Part shown: one piece after another, positions 6,250-25,951 of the stretch
Layout: each line of letters begins with the position of its first letter
How positions within the stretch are numbered: position 1 is the stretch's first letter
DNA from: an uncultured Acidobacteriota bacterium
GTDB lineage: Bacteria > Acidobacteriota > Vicinamibacteria > Vicinamibacterales > UBA2999
NCBI GenBank assembly: GCA_963786365.1
Contig: CAWAYR010000022.1
Location: 453,435 to 517,434, forward strand
Direction: 5' to 3'
DNA: 64,000 nt
Translations under genes and position numbers: made by a program
Notes under the pieces: model-generated
Database searches by the model: none
What the model saw: only the letters and a program-made list of their open reading frames with translations
What the model was told of the DNA's origin: nothing

Positions 6250-7485
<1,236 letters not shown>

Positions 7486-7572
7486 TGCGCGTGTGGAAGG
7501 GCGAATCGGAGACGCACCGCCACCCACTACGACGTGGCGTTCGAGTCGCCGCCGTCGTCTCCCCCCGGCTCC

Positions 7573-9895
7573 CTACTTCTGGAGCAGGTAGTTCACCTTG
7601 ACCAACAGCTGCCGATCCATCTGCGGGAACAGGTCGGCCGGCAACCCGGTCTGCCGCAGGTCGTTGTAGACGACGTAGAGATCGCTGCCCGGACGGTGGA
7701 TCAGGTTGAAGCGGATGTTGTTCGAGACCTCGTTGGTGCTGGTGTTGTACTGGGTGAGGCTGCGGATGGTCATGCGCGGGCTGAACGTGAAGTCGACGCG
7801 CAACGTCGTCAGGTTGACCAGGAAGTTGCCCCACGGCATCTTGACGTCGTTGCGGCTGTACTGCAGCTCGGACGACAGCCGGCTGGTGGCGCGGGCACCG
7901 AAGGCATAGAGCCAGGCTGCGGCGGGTGCCGCCGTAGAAGTCGGTCGGCTGCCAGGTCACCCGCTGGTAGAGCCGTCGGCCGGGGCTCGTGTTGTAGGTG
8001 AACATCCACTCGTCCATGTTGTAGCTGCCGACCGGGATGCGCACGCCGGGCCGGATGTTGAACGGCGTGTCGAGCACGTCGAGCTGCTTCTGGTAGATCA
8101 CGTTGATGAACGAGTCGTCGCGCAGCGTCGTCCCGAGCATCAGGTGGTGCATGCGGTTGACCAGCCGATTCGTCTGGTCGGTGGTGTAGGTGAGCACGTA
8201 CATCGGCTCCATCACCTTGATCCGCCCCCGTTTGGGCCGCGGCGTCGGGCTGAAGTAGGCCTTGGTCGTGCGGATGCCGGTGCGCTGCACGAAGCCGGCC
8301 TCGGCGTTGAAGTTCTCCTGGACGTCGAGGTAGTTGAGCCACACGTTCCAGCTCGGATCGCGGTAGGCGACGCGCCCGTAGAAGGACATGTCCTGGCCTT
8401 CCCCGATCGGACGGCCGCCGACCCACGGCATCTCGGGGTTGGTCGCGGTCTTGGCCAGGAAGGAGTTGACCTGGAAGCTGTTGCCGAAGGTGAAGTTGCC
8501 GTCGACGCCCATCGTGCGGTTGTAGTGCGGGCTGCCGTCGACCGACTCCTTGTTGATGAAGAGCGCACCGACGCGTGAGCGCCGGAACACGTCGCGGCTG
8601 TAGCGGCTGACGAAGAAGTTGTCGCCGGGCCGGCCGAATGCGTCGTCGGTCTGCACGTCCATCACCGCGACGTTGTTGGGGCCGACCTTGCCGGTCAGCC
8701 GCGACCCGGCCAGGATCGGCACCGGCTGGCCGTTCTCGGACAAGCCGATGCGGCGGCTGAAGAAGAGGTCGGTCTGCACCGGCGTCGAGGTGAACGACGA
8801 GCCCGTGCCCACGGCGAATGCGTTCGAGTTCTCGAGGAAGAAGTCGCGCTTCTCGGGATAGAACAGCCCGAAGCGGGTCAGGTTGACCTGCTGCTCGTCG
8901 ACTTCGACCTGGGCGAAGTCGGTGTTCAGGGTGACGTCGAGATTGAGGCCGGCGGTGACGCCCCACCGGGCGTCGAGGCCGACGTCCTTGACCCACGACG
9001 TCGACTGGACCGCGGCCGAGAGCTCACGGTCGTGCACGCCGGTGACGAAGAACGGCTTCAACTTCAGATCCCAGCCGAGGCTCAGCCCCTGCAGGCCGCG
9101 CAGCTCCCCGGCCAGGCTGACGCGCGTCAGGCTGTAGGCGCGCGGGATCGGCGACCAGTAGTCGAGCTCGTTCTTGCGGCGGATGTGACGCAGGAAGTTG
9201 ATGCCCCAGGTCTGCTCGTCGCTGGAGCGGAAGCGCAGGGTGTTGGTGGGAATGGCCATTTCCGCCGTCCACCCGTCGCTGGTGATCTGCGCGGCCGAGT
9301 TCCACACGCCTTCCCAATTGCGGTTGACGTTCGAGGTGGTGCCGCGGCCGCCGCCCTCGCCTTCGTCGAAGATCTGCTGCTCGAGCTTGGCGCCGAGCGG
9401 CGTCGTGACGAACATGTAGCCGTTGCGCGAGTCCTTGAACGTGTCGAGGATGACCTGGAAGTTGTCCTCGTCGAACAGGCGGTCGGAATCGCGCCGCATC
9501 TCGGTGGCCACGACGTCGCCGTGATGGGCGTGCGCGCCGGCATCCGGCCCGGCCGTGTCGGCGGCGGCGGTCACGCCGCCGGACTGGTAGGCGTGGACGG
9601 CGATGTAGATGGTGCGGGCGTCGTAGACGATGCGCACTTCGGTGCGCTCGGTCGCGGGCTGGCCGAGGTTGGGCTCCTGCTGCGTGAAGCCGTCGACCGG
9701 GGTGGCCAGGGACCAGACGTCGTCATCGAGGGCGCCGTCGATTCGCGGGCCTTCGTCCACGCGCACGGCCTGCACGAACGGTCGCTCGCGGCTGGGTTGG
9801 GCGGCGGCTGGTGTCGCCACGGACAGGGCGACGAGGGCGGCGACGACGAGCAGCGACGAACGACGACAGGAACAGTCGGTCGGAGGCATGGTCAA
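7573..9895 (-). pseudogene. DUF5916 / CBM9-like outer-membrane protein (copy 1), frame break near 7910
   Basis: Signal peptide, then 'IDGALDDDVW', 'NFQVILDTFKDSRNGYMF', 'DFAQVEVDEQQVNLTRFGLFYPEKRDFFLE'. The C-terminus is recovered in ORF 7573..7839. Paralogue of 43796..46134. Confidence 0.75.
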
Positions 9896-10094
9896 TCAAC
9901 TAGTGTGCCAGCGGCCGAGCTTGGAGTCGCAACCGCTTGTAATTGTAAAGACCGGTCTAAGAACGACTTAGGCCGAACCAGGGGCTGGTGACCGCCAGCC
10001 CGGACCGGGGGTGCGGCGCCCGGCCACATCCGTCGTCGAGCTCCCCGCGTAGATCGGGCATTCGCGCCCGTTCCCTTGGGAGGAGACCCTGACG

Positions 10095-11607
10095 ATGACT
10101 CGAACCATTCCTGAAGACCGCCCTGGCCGCCGCCGTGGTGGCGGCCCCCCTGGCCGTGTTCACGGCCAATCACCGCGAGGCGCCGATCACGGCACTCGAC
10201 CGCGCCGCCGACATCACCGACTGGTACTCGTTCGTGAGCTACGACGATCCGACCAAGCTCACGATGGTGCTGTCGGTGGACCCCCTGCTCGAACCCGCCA
10301 ACGGCCCGAACTACTTCCCCTTCGATCCCGAGATCCTCTACGAGATGAAGGTCGACAACAACCACGACGCCGTCGAGGACGTCACCCTCCAGTTCCGCTT
10401 CCAGACCGAGCAGCGGAATCCCGGCGTGTTCACCGGCTTCGTCGGCGGCTTGCTGGGCATCCCGCCGATCACCGCGCTCGACGGTCCCGGGTCGGAGGGG
10501 CTGGGCTTCCGCCAGACCTACACCGTGACCGCGATCCGCGGCGACCAGCGCTTCGACCTGAGCGGCGGCCGCAAGCTCTACGCCGTGCCGACCAATGTCG
10601 GGCCCGCGCACCATGCCCAACTACCAGCGCGCTCTACGACCAGGGCATCTACAACCTGGGCAACGGCATCCGCGTCTTCGCCGGCACCACCGACGACCCG
10701 TTCTACATCGATCTGGGCGCCGCGTTCGACTCGCTCAACTTCCGGCCCGAAGCCGGCGGCGGCGTGCTGAGCCCGGCCAACGACGACAACAACACGGTCA
10801 ACGTCGCCCCCGACGACGTCTCCGGCTACAACGTGAACACCATCGCGATCGAGATCCCGATCGCCCTCCTGACCAGCGACCTCCGCCGCCCACACCAACA
10901 CCGAACCGGCGGCGGTGCTCGGCACCTACGGCACGACCTCGCGGCCGCAGATCACCGTGCGGCGCCGGCCGCGCGAGGGCAACGGCAACCTCGAGCCAGG
11001 GGCCGTTCCGCCAGGTGCAGCGCATGGGCAACCCGCTCATCAACGAGCTCATCATCGGCACCGGGTCGAAGGATCGCTTCAGCATGGACGACCCGACCAA
11101 CGACGCCAGTTCGTGGCCTTCTTCGCCCAGCCGCTGCTCGCCGACATCTTCAAGTCGATCGGCGTGCCGGTGCCGACCGGCCCGCGGCTCGACCTGGCGC
11201 CGCTGGTCCAGTACACCGGGCCGACCATCCCGGCCGGGACGCCCAAGGGCCCGGTGGCCGACCTGCTGCGCATCAACACCGGCATCCCGCCGACCCCGGC
11301 CGCCCAGCAGCAGCGGCTCGGCCTGCTCACGCTGCTCGACGGCAACAACGCCAACGACGATGCCGCCGGCTTCCCCAACGGCCGCCGGCCCGACGACGAC
11401 GTGACCGACATCGCCGCCCGCGCCGTGGCCGGCATCCTGGTCAACCCGACGACGTTCGGCACGCGCATCGGCGACGGCGTCAACGTCAACGACATGCCGA
11501 AGCGGGCCACGTTCCCCTACATCCCGCCGGCGCACGACGGCCGCAACAGCCGTCACGTCGACCCCAACGAACCCGGCTGCGCGGGCGTGTGCCCGCCCGG
11601 ACTGTAA
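10095..11607 (+). pseudogene. DUF4331-family exported protein, about five frame breaks
   Basis: 'ANHREAPITALDRAADITDWYSF', 'FAGTTDDPFYIDLGAAFD', 'QRMGNPLINELIIG', 'FPNGRRPDDDVTDI' are spread over three frames, with breaks at ~10100, 10615, 10895, 10990 and 11105. A GGGAGGAG SD precedes the ATG at 10095. Confidence 0.8.
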
Positions 11608-11632
11608 TCGGCTCTCCCCAGGAGACACGACG

Positions 11633-12824
11633 ATGAGCATCTGCAGACTCGTCCTCGTGGCGGCGGTGGTGGCGGGGAGCGCGACGGCGCTCTCCGCCCA
11701 GCCGCGACTGCCCGAATCCACGGCCGCCGCGACGATGGAATCGCCGGCCGAGCGCAAGATGGCGATCGCGAAGAAGAAGATCGACCGCGACCCCAAGGCG
11801 TACCACGGTTACAACGAGCTGGCGCTGGCCCTGACCCAGCGCGCCCGCGAAACCGCCGATCCGGTGTTCTACCAGCAGGCCGACGAAGCCGTGCGCACGT
11901 CGCTGACGCTCGCGCCCGATAACTTCGAAGCGCTCAAGGTGCGGACCTGGTCCCTGCTCGGCCAGCACCGCTTCGCCGAGGCGCTCGCCCTGGCGACCAC
12001 GCTCAACACGAAGGTGCCCGACGACCTGATGGTCTACGGCATGCTGACCGACGCCAACATCGAGCTCGGCAAGTACGACGACGCCGAGAAGTCGGCGCAG
12101 TGGATGCTCGACCTGCGGCCCGGCAACATCCCGGCCCTGACCCGCGCCGCCTACCTGCGCGAGTTGTTCGGCGACATCGAAGGGGCGCTCGAGTTGATGA
12201 CGGCGGCCTTCGGCCGCATGCCGTACCAGGAGAGCGAGGACCGGGCCTGGGTCCTCACCCAGATCGGCCACCTCGAGCTGGTGCGGCAACGCTCCGCCGA
12301 GGCCGAGCGGGCGCTCGAGCAGGCGCTGGACCTGTTCCCCGACTACCACTACGCGCTGGGCAGCCTGGCCGAGGTGCGGACGTCGCAGAAGCGGTACCGC
12401 GAGGCCGCCGACCTGCAACGGCGGCGCTACGCGTGTCGCGCCGCATCCCGAGAACCTCTACGAGCTGGCCGAGGCGCAGGCGAGAGCCGGCATGACCACC
12501 GAGGCGGCGCAGAGCTACGCGCAGTTCGAGGCCGGAGCCCGACGTGAAATGAGCAGCCAGGACAACGCCAACCGCGAGCTGATCAGTTACCTGGTCGGGG
12601 CGGGCAAGAGGCCAGCGGAAGGCCTGGCGCTGGCCCAGCAGGAGATCGCCCGCCGCCAGGATGTCTACACCCGCGAAGCCTATGCCTGGGCGCTGTTCAA
12701 GAACGGCAAGCGGGCCGAGGCGCGCAAGGAGATCGCCGCGGTGCTGGCCGTGGGCGTGCAGCATCCGCGGGTGCTGGAGCGGGCGGCGCTGATCCAGCGA
12801 CGGCCTATCGCGGCCACGCGCTAG
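11633..12824 (+). pseudogene. TPR-repeat protein with signal peptide, frame break near 12430
   Basis: ORFs 11633..12547 and 12492..12824 join. Repeated A/L/Y-rich 34-residue helical units are present. It lies immediately downstream of DUF4331. Confidence 0.7.
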
Positions 12825-13941: not shown

Positions 13942-14805
<864 letters not shown>

Positions 14806-14816
14806 CCCGGAGTGCC

Positions 14817-15251
14817 GTGCCCGAGTACCCCGAGAAGCTGCAGACGCTGCTCGACGTCTTCGCCGGCGTGACCGACACGCACGAGCGGACGCAGCTGCTG
14901 CTCGACTACGCCAAGCGGTTCAAGGAGGTGCCGGCGGCGGTGGCGACGCGCCCGTTCGCCACGAACCACCTCGTGCCGCACTGCGAGTCGGAGGCCTACG
15001 TCTGGGTCGTCGCCAACGCCGACGGCACGCTGGCGCTGCACTTCGCGGTCGAGAACCCGTCGGGCATCTCGGCCAAGGCGCTCGCCGCCATCCTGCAGAA
15101 GACGCTCTCGGGGCTGCCGGCCGCCGACGTGGCCCGCGTCGACCCCGAGATCGTCGAGCGGTTGTTCCGCCAGAACATCTCCATGGGCAAGGGCATGGGC
15201 CTCATGTCGATGGTGGCGGCGGTGCAGGCGCTGGCCAGGCGCCTGGCCTGA
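14817..15251 (+). CDS. sufE: SufE-like cysteine desulfuration/sulfur-acceptor protein
   Basis: GTG start 9 nt after the rhodanese stop. 'LLLDYAKRFKEVP...NHLVPHCESEAYVWV...QNISMGKGMGLMSMV' carries the conserved Cys loop. Confidence 0.8.
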   Translation: MPEYPEKLQTLLDVFAGVTDTHERTQLLLDYAKRFKEVPAAVATRPFATNHLVPHCESEAYVWVVANADGTLALHFAVENPSGISAKALAAILQKTLSGLPAADVARVDPEIVERLFRQNISMGKGMGLMSMVAAVQALARRLA

Positions 15252-15264
15252 GCCGCGCCGGTCG

Positions 15265-17334
15265 CTAGTTCTTGAGGCCGAGCCGGGTCAACTGCCCGCA
15301 GTAGTTGCGCGTCATCTTGAACTGGAACATGCCGTCGTTGGTCGCCGGGGCGCCCACGCTCTGCGTCGCCGAGAGCTGCTGCTCGAGCGCGGAGGGATCC
15401 GAGGCCGACACTTCCTGGCCCATCGGATTGGTGTAGTAGGTGGTGCGGCCGCCGACGTGATTCTGCCAGTGGCCCGGCTGCGCGTAACTCTCGCGCTGGC
15501 AGCCGCGGAACCAGCTCCAGTCGGTGTTGTAGACCTTCGATGAAGCCATCCGCGGATCCCAGGCGTAGACCAGCTCGGAGGGGTTGTTCGGATTGCGGAC
15601 GGTGATCGGGTCGAATACCGCCGGCGTCGCGAACGACCGGTAGACCTCGCGGCCCTGGAACCTCACGACCTGGGTCGTGCCCCAGATCTCGTAGGCACTC
15701 GTCAGCGGACAGGGCGAGTTCAACTGCACCACGTCCTTGGTCGGCGTCTCGGCACGGGGATCGCAAACGTTGGCCGACCCGCCGGTGTCCATCATCAGCT
15801 GCGTGAACGCCTTGAGGCCGAACTCGGGATGGATCAGGCGAATCTCGGCCGAGTGGTGCTGCATCGCGAACCGCTTCGGCCCGCCGGTGCCCATGTGGAA
15901 CACCGAGCGCGAGTAGACGCGGTTGATCCGGCCTTCGTCGTTCTGGTCGCCGGGATTGGCGATGAACACCTTGAACCCTTCATGCGGCTCGTCGTGGCCG
16001 TTGGGCTCGTCAGGCATCGGGTGCCGCCGGCCGATGTAGCCGAACTTCGGCGGCACGGCCGAAATCTCGGCATTGCCCGACAGCGCCGGGTTGTCGCCGT
16101 GCTCGTGGGCGTAGATGCAGCCCGAGGGATCGACCTGCGGGTGCCAGGTGCGGTAGCGGTAGCCGTCGCCGCCATCGACGCTCCACGCGTCGTGCGTTGC
16201 GGCGCTGCAGTTGCCGAGGATCACCGGGTCGACGCTCCCGAAGATAGGGGGACCTGAAGGCGGCGGCGGCGGCGGCGGCGGTGGCGGCGGCGGTGGCGGC
16301 GGCGGCGGCGGCGGCGGAGTAGGAGGCGGCGGCGTCGCAGCGCCGGCCACGGTCACCGTGACGTGACGATAGCTCGTGACGTCGTCCGGGAAACGGCCGT
16401 CGGCCTGGTTGAAGGTGATGAGGTAAAGGGTCGTCGTCGTCGGTGTCACCGGCCACGAGCGCGTACTGGCCGGCACGCGGCCGACTCCTGGCTCAATCGT
16501 GATCGTCCTCGGGTCGGCACCGCCGCTGGTGGTCCAACGCAACGTCGCGGTCTGGCCGACGCCGATGCTCGACGGGTCCATCGTGGCGTTGGCGATGATC
16601 ACGGTGTTCGACGTCGGCGTCGGAGTGGGCGTCGGGGTCGGGTGGCGTCGGGGTCGGCGTTGGGGTCGGGATCGGCGTTGGGGCGGGGTCGGGGTCGGAC
16701 CGCCGCCGCCGACGTAGAGCACCGCTTCGCCCGACGGCGCGCTGGAGCCGCAGGCATTCTGGGCGCGGACACGGACGTAGTAAGTGCCCGCCGGCGCCGA
16801 CGCGAGCAGGCTCGGGGCACCCAGCGGCACCATTGCCAGGTTCGCGGCGCCTGGCGCCGACCCGGCCTCGAGCACGTAGCCGGTGGCCCCGGACGACGGC
16901 TGCCAGGCCAGGGCCACGGTGGTCCCGCTGACCTGCGTCACCAATCCGACGGGCACCGTCGGCGCCGTGACGCATCCAACGCGCACCGCGATCTCGTTCG
17001 ACGGCGCGCTCACGCCGGCGGCGTTCGCGGCTCGCACCCGCACCCAGTACAGACCGTTGCGCACGTTGGCAGCGACGACGCCGGGCGACTGCACGACGGA
17101 GACGACCAGATCGCTCGCACCCGGGGCGCTGCCGACCTCGATCTGGTAGAGGATCGGCGTGAGGGTACCGGCACCCGGCGACCATGCCAGGGTGACGGTC
17201 GAGCCCTGCACCGCGCTGGCGAGACCTGTGGGTGTGGGCGGTGCGCTCTGCGCCAACACGGCCGGCCCCACCACGGCAATTGCCACCGCGGCCAAGCTGC
17301 CCAGGGCGGCGCGGCGATAACGGTCAACGAACAT
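15265..17334 (-). CDS. Secreted FN3-repeat protein with PT and poly-Pro linkers, an Ig-like insert and an unrecognised ~330-aa His/Cys-rich C-terminal domain (paralogue A)
   Basis: Signal peptide 'MFVDRYRRAALGSLAAVAIAVVGPAVLAQS'. Two FN3-like units ('GLYWVRVRAANAAGVSAPSNE', 'GTYYVRVRAQNACGSSAPSGE'). C-domain 'IFGSVDPVILGNCSAATHDAW...YAHEHGDNP...FHMGTGGPKRF..HHSAEIRLIHP...NYCGQLTRLGLKN'. Confidence 0.8.
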   Translation of the reverse strand: MFVDRYRRAALGSLAAVAIAVVGPAVLAQSAPPTPTGLASAVQGSTVTLAWSPGAGTLTPILYQIEVGSAPGASDLVVSVVQSPGVVAANVRNGLYWVRVRAANAAGVSAPSNEIAVRVGCVTAPTVPVGLVTQVSGTTVALAWQPSSGATGYVLEAGSAPGAANLAMVPLGAPSLLASAPAGTYYVRVRAQNACGSSAPSGEAVLYVGGGGPTPTPPQRRSRPQRRPRRHPTPTPTPTPTSNTVIIANATMDPSSIGVGQTATLRWTTSGGADPRTITIEPGVGRVPASTRSWPVTPTTTTLYLITFNQADGRFPDDVTSYRHVTVTVAGAATPPPPTPPPPPPPPPPPPPPPPPPPPSGPPIFGSVDPVILGNCSAATHDAWSVDGGDGYRYRTWHPQVDPSGCIYAHEHGDNPALSGNAEISAVPPKFGYIGRRHPMPDEPNGHDEPHEGFKVFIANPGDQNDEGRINRVYSRSVFHMGTGGPKRFAMQHHSAEIRLIHPEFGLKAFTQLMMDTGGSANVCDPRAETPTKDVVQLNSPCPLTSAYEIWGTTQVVRFQGREVYRSFATPAVFDPITVRNPNNPSELVYAWDPRMASSKVYNTDWSWFRGCQRESYAQPGHWQNHVGGRTTYYTNPMGQEVSASDPSALEQQLSATQSVGAPATNDGMFQFKMTRNYCGQLTRLGLKN
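16259..16317. repeat. (GGC)n trinucleotide microsatellite encoding a run of over 20 prolines in paralogue A
   Basis: 'ggcggcggcggcggcggcggcggtggcggcggcggtggcggcggcggcggcggcggcgg'. It translates on the minus strand as PPPPPPPPPPPPPPPPPPPPP. Confidence 0.9.
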
Positions 17335-17599
17335 CAGCACACCCCCAACCGTGCGCTGCCGTGCAGAACACGTTGCAAAACTGGAAACCGGGCAGCGAAG
17401 GCACTCGCGCCCAGCGTGGTCACGCGCCGCGGCTGCAATTCACAGACCCCTCCTGGCGGTCACCCTGAACGCGACCAGGAGCGACATCCGACTCGACGGG
17501 TCAGGCACGAAAACTGTACGGACGCTGACAAACGTGCGTACCGTTTTTCAATTTCGTAATCGGGAACGATGGCGCGGGGGATCGGTCGACAAAGCGAAC

Positions 17600-17625
17600 A
17601 ACCCCGGGCACGTTCGCCCGGGGTT
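17600..17625 (-). terminator. Stem-loop downstream of paralogue B (candidate intrinsic terminator)
   Basis: Perfect 10-bp stem AACCCCGGGC / GCCCGGGGTT with a 6-nt loop, about 75 nt after the stop at 17700. The T-tract on the minus strand is weak ('gttcgctttgtc'). Confidence 0.45.
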
Positions 17626-17699
17626 GTGAAATCACGTGCAGAGTTGTGTGACGACCAGCGACGCGACGCAGACCTCGTTGGGTCAGCGCGGCGTCCGCC

Positions 17700-19346
17700 C
17701 TAGTTCTTGAGGCCGAGCCGGTTCAGCTGCCCGCAGTAGTTGCGCGTCATCTTGAACTGGAACATGCCGTCGTTGGTCGCCGGAGCGCCGACGCTCTGCG
17801 ACGCGGAGATCTGCTGCGCCAGGGCGTACTGATGCGTCTGCGCCACCTCGTTGCCCATCGGGTCGGTGTAGTAGGTGGTGCGGCCGCCGACGTTGTTCTG
17901 CCAGTAGCCGGGCTGCGCGTAGCTCTCGCGCTGGCAACCGCGGAACGAGCTCCAGTCGACGTTGTAGACCTTCGACGCCGCCATCCGCGGATCCCAGGCA
18001 TAGACCAGCTCGGCGGGGTTGTTCGGATTGCGGACGGTGATCGGGTCGAATACCGCCGGCGTCGCGAACGACCGGTAGACCTCGCGGCCCTGGAACCTCA
18101 CGACCTGGGTCGTGCCCCAGATCTCGTAGGCACTCGTCAGCGCGCAGGGCGAGTAGAGCTGGACGACGTCCTTGGTCGGCGCGTTGACGCGCGGATCGCA
18201 GACCGTTGCCGATCCGCCGGTGTCCATCATCAGCTGCGTGAACGCCTTGAGGCCGAAGTCGGGATGGATCAGGCGAATCTCGGCCGAGTGGTGCTGCATC
18301 GTGAACCGCTTCGGCCCGCCGGTGCCCATGTGGAACACCGAGCGCGAGTAGACGCGGTTGACCCGGCCCTCGTTGTTCTGATCGCCGGGATTGGCGATGA
18401 ACACCTTGAAGCCTTCATGCGGCTCGTCGTGGCCGTTGGGCTCGGCGGCATTCGGGTGACGCCGGCCGATGTAGCCGAACTTCGGCGGCACCGACTTGAT
18501 CTCGGCGTTGCCCGACAGCGCCGGGTTGTCGCCGTGCTCGTGGGCGTAGATGCAGCCCGAGGGATCGACCTGCGGGTGCCAGGTGCGGTAGCGGTAGCCG
18601 TCGCCGCCGTCGACGCTCCACGCATCGTGCGTCGCGCCGCTGCAGTTGCCGAGGATCACCGGGTCGACGCTGCCGAAGATATTGCCGGTCGGCGGAATCG
18701 GGCCGGCGGCGCCGACGGTGAGCAACCTTTCACTCGACGGCGCACTCGCACCGCAGGTGTTCGCGGCGCGCACCCGCACGAAGTAGGTGCCGTTTGGCAC
18801 CGTCGTCACCAGGCTGGTCGTGCCGATAGGGGCCTGGGCCAGGTCGGCCAGGCCCGACTGGGAACCGGCCTCGATGATGTAGCCCACTGCGCCAGCCGAC
18901 GCCTGCCACGCCAAGGTCACGGTGTTGCCGCTCACCTGCGTGACGAAGCCGGTGGGCGCGGCCGGCGGGCCGGAGCAGCCCACGGTGACCGAGACCTCAT
19001 TGGAGGGGTTGCTCACGCCCGCGCTGTTGGCGGCCCGGACCCTGATGAAGTAGCGCCCGTTGGCCGTGTTCGGAGCCACGACGCTCGTCGTCGACCAGGC
19101 CGCCTGCACCAGGTTGCTGGCGCCCGGGGTGCTGCCCACTTCCAGGACGTAGACGCTCGGGAGAGGCCCCGAGCCGGGTGACCAGGAGAGCGAGACCGTG
19201 GTGCCGCTCACATTGCCCGTGAGGTTGACTGGGGGCTGCGGCGCCGACTGCGCCACGAGCACCAACGGCATGGTCACGCACGCGATGAGAATGAGGATTG
19301 GAGCTACGGAGCCAAGGCGGGCACGGTGCAAAACTTCATGGAACAT
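17700..19346 (-). CDS. Secreted FN3-repeat protein with the same His/Cys-rich C-terminal domain (paralogue B)
   Basis: Intact ORF. Signal 'MFHEVLHRARLGSVAPILILIACVTMPLVLVAQS', two FN3-like units, and a C-domain about 90% identical to paralogue A. Confidence 0.8.
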   Translation of the reverse strand: MFHEVLHRARLGSVAPILILIACVTMPLVLVAQSAPQPPVNLTGNVSGTTVSLSWSPGSGPLPSVYVLEVGSTPGASNLVQAAWSTTSVVAPNTANGRYFIRVRAANSAGVSNPSNEVSVTVGCSGPPAAPTGFVTQVSGNTVTLAWQASAGAVGYIIEAGSQSGLADLAQAPIGTTSLVTTVPNGTYFVRVRAANTCGASAPSSERLLTVGAAGPIPPTGNIFGSVDPVILGNCSGATHDAWSVDGGDGYRYRTWHPQVDPSGCIYAHEHGDNPALSGNAEIKSVPPKFGYIGRRHPNAAEPNGHDEPHEGFKVFIANPGDQNNEGRVNRVYSRSVFHMGTGGPKRFTMQHHSAEIRLIHPDFGLKAFTQLMMDTGGSATVCDPRVNAPTKDVVQLYSPCALTSAYEIWGTTQVVRFQGREVYRSFATPAVFDPITVRNPNNPAELVYAWDPRMAASKVYNVDWSSFRGCQRESYAQPGYWQNNVGGRTTYYTDPMGNEVAQTHQYALAQQISASQSVGAPATNDGMFQFKMTRNYCGQLNRLGLKN

Positions 19347-19707
19347 CAACTAGACCCCCACCGCCGACTGCTCGAGGCAGACGGACGCGAGAACGACCTG
19401 ACGCTCGGGGAGACTCGCGCCGGGACCACGTGTTTCATATGTCGAGGCCGCCGGACTGCAATTACCAGGCCGGGGTTTTGAGGGCACTGCAGGCTGGATG
19501 AAAGTCAGTGCCAGTGGTGATTACACCGGGCACGAAATCTCTCGTTGGCCAGACATCACTTGTGAATGGCCGTGCAGCAGTGTGGAGCTGTGTAGAGAAA
19601 CCGCGCGACGTCGCGGCATTGTGGGCAGCGGCCGCGGGGCCGGGGTGTAGAAACTGCCGGGCGGTGTAGGGACGGGCTACACCTCGCAGCCCGCCCCTAC
19701 GGCACGT

Positions 19708-21352
19708 TCAGTTCTTGAGGCCGAGACGCGCGCGCTGCTGGCAGAACCCGCGCCGCATCTTGAACTGGATGAGGCCATCGGTCGTGGCCGGAGCGCCGAC
19801 GCTGTTGGACTGCGAGATCTCCTGTCGGAGCGCCTGCGGATCGCTCGCCGCCTTCGGTTGTCCCATGGCGTCGGTGTAGTACGCCGCCTGGCCGCCGCCG
19901 TTGAACCAGATAGCCCGGCTGCGCGTAGCTCTCGCGATCGCAGCCGCGGTTGCTCGACCAGTCGTCGCCGGGGAAGTTCTTGATGGCGCTGACCCGCGGG
20001 TCCCAGGCGTAGACGAGCTCGGTCGGGTTGGCCGGATTGAAGACCGTGATCGGGTCGAAGACCGCCGGCGTCGCAAACGCCCGGTAGACCTCGCGGCCGT
20101 TGGCCATCACCGACGCCGTCGTGCTCCAGATCTCATAGCCGCTGTTGAGCCGGCACGGCGAGTTCAACTGCATCACGTCCTTCACCGGGGCCGGCCGGCG
20201 CGGGTCGCAGACGGCTCCGACGCCGCCGGTGTTCATCATCAGCTGGGTGAACGCCTTCAGCCCGAACTCGGGGTGCACGAGGCGGATTTCGGCTGAGTGG
20301 TGCGGCATGTTGAAGCGCTTCGGACCGCCGGTGCCCATGTGGAACACCGAGCGGGAGAAGACCCGGTTGACCCGCCCCTCGTCGTTGGCGTCGCCGCGGT
20401 TGGCGATGAACACCTTGAAGCCCTCGTGGGCCTCCTCGTGGCCGTTGGGCTCGCCCGGCATCGGGTGGCGGCGGCCGATGTAACCGAATCGCACCGGCGA
20501 GGCGGCGATGGTCGGCTCCTGGACGAGCGCCGGGTTGTCGCCGTGCTCGTGGGCATAGACGCACCCGGACGGATCGGTCTGCGGATGCCAGGTGCGGTAA
20601 CGGTAGCCGTCGCCGCCGTCGACCACCCAGCGGTCATGCGTAGCGGCGCTGCAGGTCCCGAGGACGACCGGGTCGACGACGCCGAAGATCGAGCCGCTGC
20701 CCGCCGGCGTGGGCCCGGCGCTGACGGCGACCGTCACCTCGTTCGAGGGGGCGCTGCTGCCGCACTTGTTGGTGGCCCGCACCCGGGCGAAGTAGGTGCC
20801 CGCCGGCGCCGTGGTCGCCAGGCTGTTGGTCGTCACCGGCACCGAGCCGATGTTGGAGAGGCCCGGACCGGTGCCGGCGTCGAGCACGTAGCCGGTCGCG
20901 CCGCTCGACTTCTGCCAGCTGAGCGCGACGTTGGTCCCGCTCACGTGCGCCGTCAGCCCGGTGGGCGCCGGCGGCGCATTCCTGCAGCCGACCCGCACCG
21001 TCAGCTCGTTGGACGGTGCGCTGACGCCGCCGGCATTGCCGGCCCGCACGCGCACGTAGTAGGTGCCGTCGGGCACGTTGGTGGCCAGCGCGCTGGTCGT
21101 GCCCAGCCGCGTCACGACCAGGTCGGCCGCTCCGGCGCGGCTCCCGGCCTCGAGCTGATACAGCACTGCGCCGGGCGCGCTCCGCCAGGACAGGGTCACG
21201 TTCGAGCCGGCGACGGCGGCAGTGAGATTGATGGGGGCGAGGGGCGCCGCCGGGGCGGCGATCAGGCGCGACCAGCCGCCGACACAGACGGCGGCACCGA
21301 GAACGACCAACGCCACCGTGGGCGCCGTGCGGGACACGTAGGACACGAACAT
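19708..21352 (-). pseudogene. Secreted FN3-repeat / His-Cys-rich domain protein (paralogue C), frame break near 19910
   Basis: ATG at 21352 preceded by GGAGG. ORF 19697..21556 carries the FN3 units and most of the C-domain. The last ~65 aa ('WFNGGGQAAYYTDAMGQ...FKMRRGFCQQRARLGLKN') are in ORF 19708..20076. Confidence 0.75.
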
Positions 21353-22197: not shown

Positions 22198-22885
22198 ATG
22201 GCCGACGGTCCGCTGACCAGACGGGATCTGCTGAAGTTCGCCGGCGTCGTCGGCGCGGCCGCGGCGGCCGCGCCAGCTGGCGGCAGCCGCGCAGCCGCGC
22301 CGGGCCAGGCCCACTCGCGAGCCGCTTCGCGCCCTGACCGCCCACGAAGCCGACGTGCTCGATCGCATCGCCGAGCTGCTCATCCCGTCGGACGAGCACG
22401 GGCCCGGAGCCACCGAGGCGATGGCGGTGCGCTACATCGATCGCGCCCTGGCCGGCGCCCTCCAGGACCAGCGCGAGGCCTATCGCGTTGGCCTCACCGC
22501 GCTGGAGCGCTATGCGCGCGAGACGCGCGGTGCGCCGTTCCTCCAGCTCACGGAAACCCGGCAGATCTCGCTCCTCATCGACGTCGAGAGCGGCACCGCC
22601 ACCGGCGCCAACACCGGCTTCGCTGGCAGTTCCGCGCAGTTCTTCGCGCTGGTGCGCGGGCACGTCATGCAGGGCACGTTCGGCGATCCGCACTACGGCG
22701 GCAACGAGGGCTTCGTCGGCTGGGATCTGCTCGGCTTCCCCGGCGTGCGGACCGTGGTCACGCCGGCCGAACAGAAGCTGCTCTCACCGCCGACGCGGGT
22801 CCGGCGGTCGGCCTACGAGAATCCGATGTTCAACAAGGCCATCGTCGACATGAAGCCGGCCGGGAGCGACCGCGATGCCGACTAA
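22198..22885 (+). pseudogene. Gluconate 2-dehydrogenase subunit-3-family protein (Tat signal), frame break near 22315
   Basis: 'MADGPLTRRDLLKFAGVVGAAAAAAP' is a twin-arginine signal. It continues in ORF 22355..22885 as 'LDRIAELLIPSDEHGPGATEA...GTFGDPHYGGNEGFVGW'. Confidence 0.7.
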
Positions 22886-24579
22886 CCTGCCGGGCACCGA
22901 CGTCGTGGTCATCGGGCTCGGCGCCGCCGGCGGCGTGGCGGTGCTGCCGCTGGCCGACGCCGGCCTCGACGTGGTCGGCCTCGAAGCCGGCACCTGGCTC
23001 ACCAACAAGGACTTCGCCCCCGACGAGATCCGCAACAACGTGCGCGACTGGCCGATGGCGGTGCAGAAGTGCAATCACGAGGTGCCGACGCATCGCCTGA
23101 ACGCGCAGGCCCCGACCACTCGTCCGCCCGGACACGTCATGATGAACGGGGTCGGCGGCACGACCCTGCACTACTGGGCGCAGAGCTGGCGACTGGCGCA
23201 TTGGGACTTCAAGGTCGTCAGCGAGACGGCGCGGCGCTACGGACGATCGCGGGTGCCGTCGGGATCGACGATCGAAGACTGGCCGTTCGGCTACGAGGAG
23301 CTCGAGCCGTACTACGACCGCGTCGAACACGAGATCGGCGTCTCGGGCCAGGCCGGCAACATCCTCGGCACGATCGACCGGCGCGGCAACATCTTCGAAG
23401 CGCCGCGCAGCACGGCCCTACCCGATGCCGCCGCTGCGCAGCACCGGCTACCTCGATCGCATGACCGGAGCGGCGAAGGCCCTCGGCTGGCACCCGTTCC
23501 CAGGACCGGCTGCCATCAACTCCGAGCGCTACCAGGACCGCATGGCGTGCATGTACCACGGCTTCTGCAATCGCGGCGGCTGCCACGTCGACGCCAAGAA
23601 CGGCCCGAACGTGACGACGATTCCCCGGGCACAGAAGACCGGGAAGCTGAAAGTCGTGACCGAAGCGCACGTCACGAAGATCGAAACCAACGAGCAGGGC
23701 AAAGTGACGGGGGTCACCTACGTCACCGGGCGCGAGGAGTTCTTCCAGCCGGCGAAGGCCGTGCTGCTCTCGACCTACACCTACGAGAACACGCGGCTGC
23801 TGCTGCTCTCGACGTCGAAGGCGTTCCCGAGAGGCCTGTCGAACAACCACGGCCAGGTCGGCCGGCACTACTTCTCGCACGCCACCGGTGCGGCGGTCAC
23901 GGCGCTGTTCCCCTTCAACCTGAACAGCTGGTACGGCCTGCCGGCGCAGGGCGTGGCAGTGGACAACTGGGCCGACGACAACTTCGACCACTCGGGCCTC
24001 GACTTCATCGGCGGCGGCAATCTCTGGGTCTACTCGGACCGGCGGCCGATCGGCGCCGCCAACATGAACACCTTCGGCCGCGCCCCGTCGTGGGGCAAGC
24101 AGTGGAAGGCGTTCGTCAAGGAGAACGCCGACCGGGTGAACACCGCCTACCTCCAGAAGACGACGCTGCCGTACGAAGACAACTATCTCGACCTCGACCC
24201 GGTGGTGAAGGATCCGCTCGGGTTCCCGGTCTGCCGCATCACCGCCGACTTCAAGGACAACGAGCGGCGGATCGCCGACTTCGTCCAGGAGAAGATGGAG
24301 CTCTGGTATCGGGCCGCGGGCGCGATCGACATCGTGCGCGGCCCGCTCGGCACGATGGGGCTGAACACGCACGCCTACGGCGGCACGCGCATGGGCGACG
24401 ACGCCGAGACCAACGTGGTCAACCGCTTCGGGTTCTCGCACGAAGTGCCGAACCTGGGCGTGCTGGGGGCGTCGGTGATGGGCACCAGCGGCGCCCACAA
24501 CCCGACGCTCACGGTGCAGGCGCTGGCGTGGCGCAGCGCCGAGCACCTCGTCAAGGAGTGGAAGACGATCGCGGAGTGA
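22875..24579 (+). pseudogene. GMC-family FAD oxidoreductase, frame break near 23415
   Basis: 'DVVVIGLGAAGGVAVLPLADAGLDVVGLEAG' (GxGxxG motif), and the C-terminus 'HAYGGTRMGDDAETNVVNRFGFSHEVPNLGVLGASVMGTSGAHNPTLT' in ORF 23425..24579. The start overlaps the preceding gene by 11 nt. Confidence 0.8.
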
Positions 24580-24585
24580 TGACCG

Positions 24586-25951
24586 TCACGGCCTGGTGAA
24601 TCCGGCCCGCAACGCGACGCGATCGAGGGCCTTGCCGCGCAGGTAGACCGCCGCGATCCGCTGCGTGTTGGCGATGTCATCGAGCGGGTTGGCGTCGAGC
24701 ACGACGAAGTCGGCGCTCTTGCCCGCCGCCACGTTGCCCAGGTCGTCGAGCTTCAGCAGCCGGGCCGGCGCGCTCGTGGAGGCGACGATCACCTGCGCAG
24801 GACTCATGCCCGCGCCGGCCATGGTCGCCATTTCGTAGTGCTCGGCCCAGCCGTGCCACGCGTTGGGAATGCCGGTGTCGCCGCCCAGCACGATGGTCAC
24901 GCCGGCGGCGGTCAGCCGGGCCAGGCTTTGCGCCATCCGGTCGTAGGTGGCGCGGGAGGTGGCGACGGCCTTCGCATCGCGGGCCCGCAGCGCCGCACGG
25001 TAGGCGGTGACGACCTCCGCCGGCACGGTTTCTGACAGACGCGCCGCACTCGAATCCGGCAGGTCAGTCAGCGTCGCGCGATGCGATCCGCCGATGTTGG
25101 CGGCCAGGAAGACGTTCTTCGCCTTCATGCGGGCGATGAGGGCGTCGTCCATCACCGCGTCGCGCACCGGGTGCAGGAAGCCGTCGATGCCGGCGTCCAC
25201 GAGCTCGTGCGCGTCCTTCAGGTAGTAGACGTGCGCCAGGGCCTGCAGCCCGCGCGCGTGTGCCTCCTCGATGACCGGGCGATACAGGTCGGGCGTGAGC
25301 TTCTTCACCCGGCCGCCGCGGTCGTCCACCCAGATTTTCACCGCCGCCGCGCCTTGCGCCGCCAGGTCGCGCACGTGCTGCCGGCCCTGCTCGGCGGTGG
25401 TGATCGGGAACGAGGTGTTGGCAATCGCCGGGAAGCCGGGGCCGCCGTCGGGTGTGGCCAGGCCGCGCCCGGCGGTCAGCAGCCGCGCGGCGTCCGGCGG
25501 CGGCTCGTCGCGCACCGCAAACGACACCGGGCCGACGTCGGTGCCGGCGGTGAGCACCGCGGCCAGGCCGTAGTACGCGTAGCGCTGCAGGTGCTCGACG
25601 ATCGTGTCGCGGGTGTAGACCTGCGGCCCGAAGTCGCTGCCGTCGAGGAGCCCGACGTGGATGTGGGCGCTGACGATCGCCGGGATCACCGTCTTGCCAC
25701 TCAGGTCGACGCGCCGACCGCCGGCCGGGAGCGTCGACCTCGCCCGTGCCGCCGACCCGGGCGATCCGCTCGCCCTCGACCAGGAACGCCGTATCCCGGC
25801 GCGCGGCGCCGGTCTCGCCGTCGATGAGGGTGGCGCCTTCGAACAGCACGGCGCCGCTGCCAGCGACGGACGCCGAGGGCGGAGCCTCCGGTGCCGGCCC
25901 GGAACAGGCGGCAGCGAGCAGGCCGACGGCGAGGAGCAACGACTGGCGCAT
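24586..25951 (-). pseudogene. Amidohydrolase-family lipoprotein, frame break near 25735
   Basis: 'MRQSLLLAVGLLAAAC' (lipobox), 'VIPAIVSAHIHVG' (HxH metal site), 'GGDTGIPN', 'ADFVVLDANPLDDI'. Confidence 0.75.

Follow-up and report, generated by a model that had tools for sequence, protein, structure and literature searches.

Three tandem genes of an uncultured Acidobacteriota bacterium (order Vicinamibacterales) encode secreted proteins that end in the same large domain, and the locus raises the question of what this domain is and what it might do. The genes, named paralogues A, B and C here, were recognized in a stretch of 64,000 nucleotides from contig CAWAYR010000022.1 of GenBank assembly GCA_963786365.1, referred to below as the window; coordinates are those of the window unless another locus is named. 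An earlier note, made from the letters of the sequence, could not assign the His- and Cys-rich C-terminal domain (C-domain) to a family, and named a confident match to a characterized family as the finding that would remove its novelty. Judged by sequence comparison and by structural modelling, the C-domain falls outside every known family against which it was compared, and it is new at the level of both protein family and fold. The biological design in which it is used, that of a secreted modular enzyme encoded by tandem paralogues, is already familiar. The reading preferred here, to which we give an even chance, is that the C-domain would be the catalytic module of a new family of metal-dependent, glycan-active extracellular enzymes.

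The C-terminal domain and its family

No confident match to a characterized family appeared in any of the profile or structure searches. The C-domain of paralogues A, B and C has no match at E ≤ 1 in Pfam-A 2025 or NCBIfam 20.0. To the same threshold, the libraries recognize only partner modules in ten long relatives and in 90 diverse members of the family, and no Pfam or NCBIfam match falls on the C-domain of the members from Actinoplanes, Nostoc and Solirubrobacter. A sequence search of the PDB with phmmer gave a best E value of 0.25, and a profile search of the PDB gave 0 matches. Comparison of two models with the PDB by Foldseek gave best E values of 0.34 and 0.26 with TM scores of at most 0.15, none of them significant. 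One model was also compared with BFVD, again with no significant match; AlphaFold DB and the modules internal to CAZy were outside the search.

Several known classes were tried in turn and rejected. The string HEHGD, which the earlier note had distinguished from the HEXXH motif of zincins, corresponds to H47-E-H49-G-D and is, by predicted secondary structure, an HxH in a loop rather than a helical HEXXH; no peptidase profile matches the domain, and a zincin metallopeptidase was rejected. In the LPMO families (AA9, AA10, AA11 and AA13-17), a histidine brace is formed with the N-terminal His of the mature protein; such a brace is impossible here, since FN3 or CBM modules precede the domain, whose place is always at the C-terminus, and neither an LPMO_10 match nor a fold match to LPMOs was found. 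A Cu/Zn SOD, a Greek-key barrel with the signature H-x-H-x2-G-D-N, was considered on the prompting of an HxHxxGDN-like string, and was dropped after hhalign of the family profile against human SOD1 gave a probability of 0.7% and no fold match was seen. Membership in the amidohydrolase superfamily is contradicted by a predicted fold that is beta-rich and not a (beta/alpha)8 barrel, and no Amidohydro profile matches. Because the Pfam, NCBIfam, PDB, zincin, LPMO and SOD tests were all negative, the C-domain cannot be assigned to a known family.

The C-domain of paralogue B was modelled, and residues are numbered from I223 of B, counted from the ATG at 19346, as residue 1. AlphaFold2 gave a pLDDT of 85.7 with an alignment of 33 sequences; with 111 diverse sequences, the pLDDT rose to 97.2, with a pTM of 0.93 and all five models at 96.8 or above. 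Beta structure predominates in the model: long strands run through residues 91-217, and there are four short helices. The first 90 residues are loop-rich in the model yet highly conserved. Across the 111 sequences, which reach down to 28% identity, 12 residues are strictly invariant: H18, H35, H47, H49, G50, K92, H117, R125, H131, Y185, E186 and W188. A further 24 columns are conserved at 90% or more, among them C13, D19, W34, C43, E48, E86, H88, S132, C161, C179 and D212, as well as R251, E252, Y254, Q289 and the last residue, N326. The near-invariant columns are mostly polar or ionizable.

About ten conserved His had been counted in the earlier note. That count holds among the three paralogues only; family-wide there are seven (H18, H35, H47, H49, H88, H117 and H131), and the remaining five His of B are lineage-specific. 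The six conserved Cys were confirmed, making three conserved pairs, and 200 of 229 full-length domains have the complete set. Since C13 is lost together with C43, and C249 together with C316, the pairs C13-C43 and C249-C316 are supported as disulfides by the pattern of co-loss.

The C-domain occurs once per protein and always at the C-terminus, and its last residue is itself conserved. A terminal Asn is found in 347 of 381 family proteins, or about 98% of complete members. Of the 34 proteins that lack it, 27 are fragments or frameshifted, six end in ..HAPG and one is poorly covered. The six belong to the distant branch of the family and end in ..GVHAPG rather than ..GVHAPN; they are the sole complete members seen without a terminal Asn. 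The tails differ by branch, being LGLKN in most bacteria, GAPGGN in Caldarchaeales and [HR][AS]PN in actinomycetes, cyanobacteria and Chloroflexi. In the model made from the deep alignment, this end of the chain is placed with confidence (pLDDT of 97 for the block). At the other end of the chain, a signal peptide or N-terminal anchor is present in 12 of 12 diverse members whose N-termini were read by eye, and the archaeal representative has a Thr-rich stalk besides its N-terminal signal or anchor.

With the C-domain of B as the query, 371 proteins were found at E ≤ 0.001 in a collection of 5.8 billion proteins. Among the top 120 of these matches, identity to the query is 58-90% for most, those with names are called "hypothetical" or after their FN3 or Ig parts, and no Pfam domain covers the C-domain region. 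Searched with a profile, 1.84 billion cluster representatives yielded 811 clusters at 50% identity, 479 of them at E ≤ 1e-10. The Actinoplanes member, used as a query, retrieved a second branch of 1170 proteins, in which all named ones are "hypothetical." The two branches are linked by profile-profile comparison with hhalign (99.8% probability, E 1.7e-29, 296 columns).

In a genome scan, the family was found in Vicinamibacterales and other Acidobacteriota, Patescibacteria (Saccharibacteria and Woesebacteria), Binatia, Anaerolineales/Chloroflexota, gammaproteobacterial metagenome-assembled genomes (MAGs), Myxococcaceae and one Bdellovibrionales MAG, and in about 18 archaeal genomes of Caldarchaeales/Thermoproteota. 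Distant copies are present in cultured Nostoc, Anabaena, Actinoplanes, Glycomyces, Streptomyces, Plantactinospora, Phytohabitans and Solirubrobacter. The earlier note had called the family lineage-expanded. This applies to the tandem expansion, which is local to Vicinamibacterales-like Acidobacteriota, and not to the family as a whole, which extends over many phyla and into the archaea. A tblastn search of plasmids found one truncated, frameshifted and unannotated copy of the domain on a megaplasmid of Miltoncostaea oceani (locus L088, 7776-8948), and this degraded copy, uninformative in itself, comes directly after an RHS toxin gene and the small ORF that follows it.

Candidate function and rival readings

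Evidence for a function comes from the modules to which the domain is fused and from the genes beside it. Among 90 diverse multidomain members, the fusion partners include CBM96 (3), CBM6 (2-3), CBM35 (3), CBM60, PA14, GLEYA, BACON, NPCBM_assoc, dockerin (1-2), SLH (2), GHL15 (1) and modules of the FN3/PKD/Big/Ig type; none of these partners is a peptidase, nuclease or lipase. CBM96 is an alginate-specific module (PMC9971899). The Nostoc member is fused to DUF4082 and CBM6, and an N-terminal CBM2 is present in three of five actinomycete members scanned (those of Glycomyces, Plantactinospora and Phytohabitans).

Gene neighbourhoods were examined by look-up of 12 loci. In two cyanobacterial genomes (locus L092, 8001-9353, and locus L093, 8001-9272), a member of the distant branch is part of a conserved same-strand cluster, in which it comes directly behind four to five GT4 genes and one GT2 gene and precedes DUF218 and hexapeptide-transferase genes. 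A stand-alone paralogue of 375 residues from Vicinamibacterales is divergent from an operon of a GGDEF response regulator, a HEAT protein and a GT2. A G8/CEMIP beta-helix protein is encoded close to one family member, and a pair of GH57 genes precedes another. On the basis of the CBM, dockerin and GHL15 fusions and the glycosyltransferase-linked contexts, the fusion partners and neighbourhoods point to a glycan substrate, without saying which. The description of a secreted enzyme or binding family in the earlier note is supported, and the fusions and contexts favour a glycan-acting enzyme over a binding protein.

A mechanism can be proposed for such an enzyme. Each gene would give a Sec-exported modular protein with a signal peptide, two FN3 spacers and a disulfide-stabilized catalytic domain of 326 residues, and the FN3 modules would hold the catalytic domain off the cell or against its substrate. 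The target would be a polysaccharide, perhaps an exopolysaccharide or a cell-wall or plant-type glycan. The seven His with Glu or Asp residues, and possibly K92, could form one metal centre, possibly binuclear. Because K92, H117 and H131 are found at the ends of three consecutive predicted strands (91-96, 111-117 and 130-139), they are likely to be neighbours, and the metal centre would lie beside them, along one edge of the central sheet. The invariant Trp, Tyr, Arg and Gln residues would bind the sugar chain. The conserved terminal Asn would fold back into the domain; an obligatory free Asn at the C-terminus points to a chain end that lies within the functional site or forms part of it.

A number of observations count against a glycan-active metalloenzyme. 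The label "carbohydrate-active" is guilt by association, since the fold resembles no known GH, PL, CE or AA family. That the invariant residues share a single site is read from sequence and predicted secondary structure. Only about 15% of multidomain members have a CBM fusion; the majority of the family, the three array proteins among them, carry FN3/Ig-type modules alone or no other module. No universally conserved gene partner was found across the 12 neighbourhoods, most of which are uninformative; what recurs is limited to the glycosyltransferase clusters of cyanobacteria and a few neighbours related to glycans. No mention of the motifs of the C-domain was found in the literature searched, and nothing relevant was found in the literature on Vicinamibacterales with FN3 or on DUF4082 with CBM6.

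The residues and partner modules that suggest a metal-dependent enzyme might also suit a redox metalloenzyme, for example a copper-dependent one, that would oxidize polysaccharides, other extracellular polymers or small molecules as an auxiliary activity of the LPMO or oxidase type. This overlaps in part with the preferred reading, given that such an enzyme would also be metal-dependent and possibly glycan-active. The seven invariant His are accompanied by an invariant Tyr, Lys and Cys, and glycoside hydrolases or lyases typically use fewer His; modules of the CBM2, FN3 and dockerin types are typical companions of bacterial LPMOs as well. Moreover, the array adjoins genes for a periplasmic pair of GMC oxidoreductase and gluconate-2-DH subunit in two genomes, and a YceI-like gene is a neighbour in Plantactinospora. 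However, the synteny with the GMC oxidoreductase is confined to one closely related lineage and may be inherited gene order, and a domain that is never N-terminal leaves no room for the histidine brace. Neither Pfam nor Foldseek shows likeness to LPMOs, cupredoxins, tyrosinases, SOD (for which the SOD1 alignment is given above), PHM or LOX. A redox enzyme is considered rather unlikely.

Also unlikely, and rated below the redox enzyme, is a non-catalytic binding or adhesin domain, lectin-like or surface-anchoring, that is displayed on FN3 stalks. The beta-rich fold and the FN3, Ig, PKD and SLH partners would be expected of such a protein; there is no recognizable catalytic motif in the domain, and most members are without any other catalytic domain. 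On the other hand, 12 invariant and about 24 near-invariant residues, mostly polar or ionizable and kept to about 30% identity, are not what lectins or CBMs typically show. True CBMs (CBM2, CBM6, CBM35, CBM60 and CBM96), which normally deliver a catalytic module, are themselves fused to the domain, and the domain is present exactly once per protein, in a fixed C-terminal position.

That strict position is shared with the C-terminal domains of polymorphic toxins, and a lytic enzyme or toxin directed against other cells, whether a peptidoglycan or cell-envelope hydrolase, a peptidase or a polymorphic-toxin domain, would fit the presence of the family in epibiotic Patescibacteria and in one Bdellovibrionales MAG, as well as the degraded copy downstream of the RHS gene on the Miltoncostaea plasmid. 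In polymorphic toxins, however, the C-terminal part is the variable one; here the order is reversed, with 90% identity between the C-domains of A and B versus 58% between their N-terminal parts, and the toxin domain was rejected as a candidate. No recurrent downstream gene that might be a cognate immunity gene, and no conserved small one, was found in the neighbourhoods examined. The absence of HEXXH and of any peptidase or nuclease profile match, and partner modules that bind plant- or algal-type glycans, likewise make this reading very improbable.

A glycan-active metalloenzyme remains the preferred reading. In its fullest form, the family would be a new class of extracellular metalloenzymes that cleave or modify polysaccharides, with a fold absent from the PDB, a multi-His and possibly binuclear centre and a conserved free C-terminal Asn in the active-site architecture. 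Its users would range from Acidobacteria of soils and actinomycetes to Patescibacteria and archaea of hot springs. The claim as a whole is put forward tentatively, as a possibility to which we give less than an even chance.

The three-gene array in the window

Paralogues A, B and C are three head-to-tail open reading frames (ORFs), all on the minus strand in the ORF listing of the window. The ORFs and their fn3 matches bear out the account of three same-strand genes that start with "MF..", carry a signal peptide and two FN3 units and share a C-domain; every block of the C-domain quoted in the earlier note was found in the array proteins. Paralogue A (15265-17334) encodes 689 residues from its likely start, the ATG at 17334, and its ORF opens at a GTG at 17340. 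The predicted signal peptide (17248-17334), MFVDRYRRAALGSLAAVAIAVVGPAVLAQ followed by SAPP and judged by eye from the sequence, precedes two FN3 modules (16711-17247; Pfam fn3 E 8.8e-6 over two stretches, PKD E 1.3e-4). The extra PT linker, Ig-like insert and poly-Pro linker described for A were located at 16246-16710, with the Ig-like module spanning about 90 residues; they are specific to A and precede its C-domain (15268-16245, 326 residues, His/Cys-rich), which ends in LGLKN.

Paralogue B (17700-19346) encodes 548 residues from the ATG at 19346, within an ORF of 17700-19349. It consists of a signal peptide predicted by eye (19248-19346), two FN3 modules matched by Pfam fn3 (18681-19247) and the C-domain (17703-18680, 326 residues), which was the query of the family searches and the sequence modelled. 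Paralogue C (19708-21352), read from the ATG at 21352, encodes 547 residues once its frame is repaired; the signal peptide is N-terminal to two FN3 modules matched by Pfam fn3 (about 20690-21256), and the C-domain (19711-20689) spans a frameshift. Read by eye, the N-termini of all three proteins have a basic n-region after "MF..", then a hydrophobic h-region, and A and B have a cleavage-like site between AQ and SAP. The fn3 scores of B and C are 40.0 and 40.1 bits and that of A is 26.3, against a Pfam PF00041 cut-off of 25 (E values of 4.8e-10, 4.2e-10 and 8.8e-6, respectively), with two stretches in each protein. The N-terminal modules of the array proteins are therefore fibronectin type III (PF00041), beta-sandwich units of about 85 residues, and the C-domain, which begins IFG.VDPV.LG.CS and ends LGLKN, is not.

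The non-coding gaps between the genes are about 350 nucleotides each, with a GC-rich hairpin after the upstream stop. As read from the sequence, the gap between B and A (17341-17699, minus strand) has its hairpin at 17600-17625, past the stop of B, and a GGGGGT resembling a ribosome-binding site (RBS) before the ATG of A; that between C and B (19350-19707, minus strand) has a hairpin at 19669-19696, just past the stop of C, and an RBS-like GGGGGT before the ATG of B. Such sites (GGGGGT or GGAGGT) are found 5-8 nucleotides 5' of the start codon of each of the three genes. The gaps, the hairpins after the stops and the separate RBS-like sites suggest that A, B and C may be separate transcription units. 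A promoter and terminator scan of the locus gave signals at background level and did not flag the hairpin at 17600-17625.

Homologues of the array C-domain reach E 1e-200, and its dN/dS is 0.31-0.41 across the array copies. The C-domain of the array is under purifying selection, and, given these homologues and a dN/dS of 0.3-0.4, A, B and C are real genes and not chance ORFs.

As sequenced, paralogue C does not end in LGLKN, as had been stated for all three genes; it shifts frame before the tail, which the earlier note does not mention, and the statement holds after frame repair. A 1-nucleotide insertion at about 19909 (TAT-C-TGG; frameshift at 19908-19910, minus strand) falls between ..YAQPGY and WFNGGG.., and the conserved tail (..WFNGGGQAAYYTDAMG...RLGLKN and stop) sits in an overlapping ORF, 19708-20076. 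C is the orthologue of a 571-residue copy in a related Acidobacteriota MAG, which is intact; when the intact orthologue from a related genome is aligned by tblastn, the match jumps from frame -1 to frame -2 right at 19910/19908. The GMC oxidoreductase gene downstream of the array (22875-24599) is also split, being read in frame +3 and then +1 at about 23410-23423, and its 568-residue orthologue in the related MAG is unbroken. In the PT linker of A, at about 16640-16690, a 14-residue stretch "PQRRSRPQRRPRRH" corresponds to "APTPIPTPTPTPTP" in another frame, which may reflect either two compensating indels or natural drift of the linker. Because the GMC oxidoreductase gene and the linker of A also look indel-affected, an indel-prone assembly, rather than a real pseudogene, may explain the frameshift in C. 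The dN/dS downstream of the frameshift in C, 0.41-0.65, would fit a gene that is functional or was damaged very recently.

The tandem copies are the product of duplication. The C-domains of A and B differ by a dS of 0.19 and share 90% amino acid identity, and their FN3 parts have a dS of 0.86 and 58% identity. C differs from A and B by a dS of 0.57-0.64 in the C-domain and 0.70-0.97 in the FN3 parts. Given that the dS between A and B is far lower in the C-domain than in the FN3 parts, their C-domains (15268-16245 and 17703-18680) were either homogenized by gene conversion or partially duplicated more recently.

On one side of the array are DUF5916, DUF4331, TPR, rhodanese and SufE-like genes (7451-12547 and 13942-15251), and on the other are genes for PEBP, gluconate-2-DH subunit 3, the GMC oxidoreductase, an amidohydrolase and KdpD. 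This gene order, Kdp included and the amidohydrolase excepted, is kept in the related Acidobacteriota MAG (84% identity), which has four tandem copies versus three here, as well as a fifth that stands alone at another place. In other MAGs of Vicinamibacterales, two to three copies are in tandem and one more stands alone. The stand-alone paralogue of Vicinamibacterales, with 375 residues, 66% identity and no FN3, occupies a separate locus (L079, 8001-9128; also L014, L015 and L016) and has no copy in the window. An array of the Vicinamibacterales type, at 83% identity, was also seen in the CAYUAX01 MAG, which is labelled "uncultured Bifidobacteriaceae" (loci L004 and L011); because of these copies, the label looks wrong or the bin contaminated.

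Significance and comparison with known systems

Few new catalytic families come to light in polysaccharide turnover, and their impact has been great: the LPMOs changed how biomass degradation is understood. The family described here has thousands of members, is extracellular as far as checked and has no name in the curated libraries. With three to five copies per genome in Vicinamibacterales, it may account for some of the secreted proteins that lack annotation in these abundant Acidobacteria of soils. Should the domain only bind, or act on something other than a glycan, it would still define a new fold family.

The binuclear amidohydrolases, such as urease, phosphotriesterase and dihydroorotase, hold their metals at the C-terminal end of a (beta/alpha)8 barrel with an HxH motif, a carboxylated Lys, two further His and an Asp as ligands. 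The order of residues in the family, H47-x-H49...K92...H117...H131...D212, is alike and by analogy suggests a comparable two-metal site. In contrast to the barrel, the fold predicted for the C-domain consists mainly of beta strands, along with four short helices, and the C-domain has no match to an Amidohydro profile or fold, so that the resemblance would be convergent at most.

Exopolysaccharide gene clusters contain glycan-processing enzymes of the BcsZ, AlgL, PslG and PelA types. Although there is no sequence or fold relation to these enzymes, and the array in the window is outside such a cluster, the family is likewise exported, some of its members are encoded in or beside glycosyltransferase or c-di-GMP-linked clusters and one is fused to GHL15.

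Modular secreted CAZymes of actinomycetes and cellulolytic bacteria, such as AA10 LPMOs with CBM2, differ from the family in that its large module is outside the GH, PL, CE and AA classes by profile and by fold. Its domain is also always C-terminal and ends in Asn, a placement that allows no N-terminal histidine brace. The overall plan is nevertheless shared: an export signal, FN3 spacers and one large conserved module, to which, in relatives of the array proteins, CBM2, CBM6, CBM35, CBM60, CBM96, dockerin and PA14 modules are joined through PT- or Pro-rich linkers.

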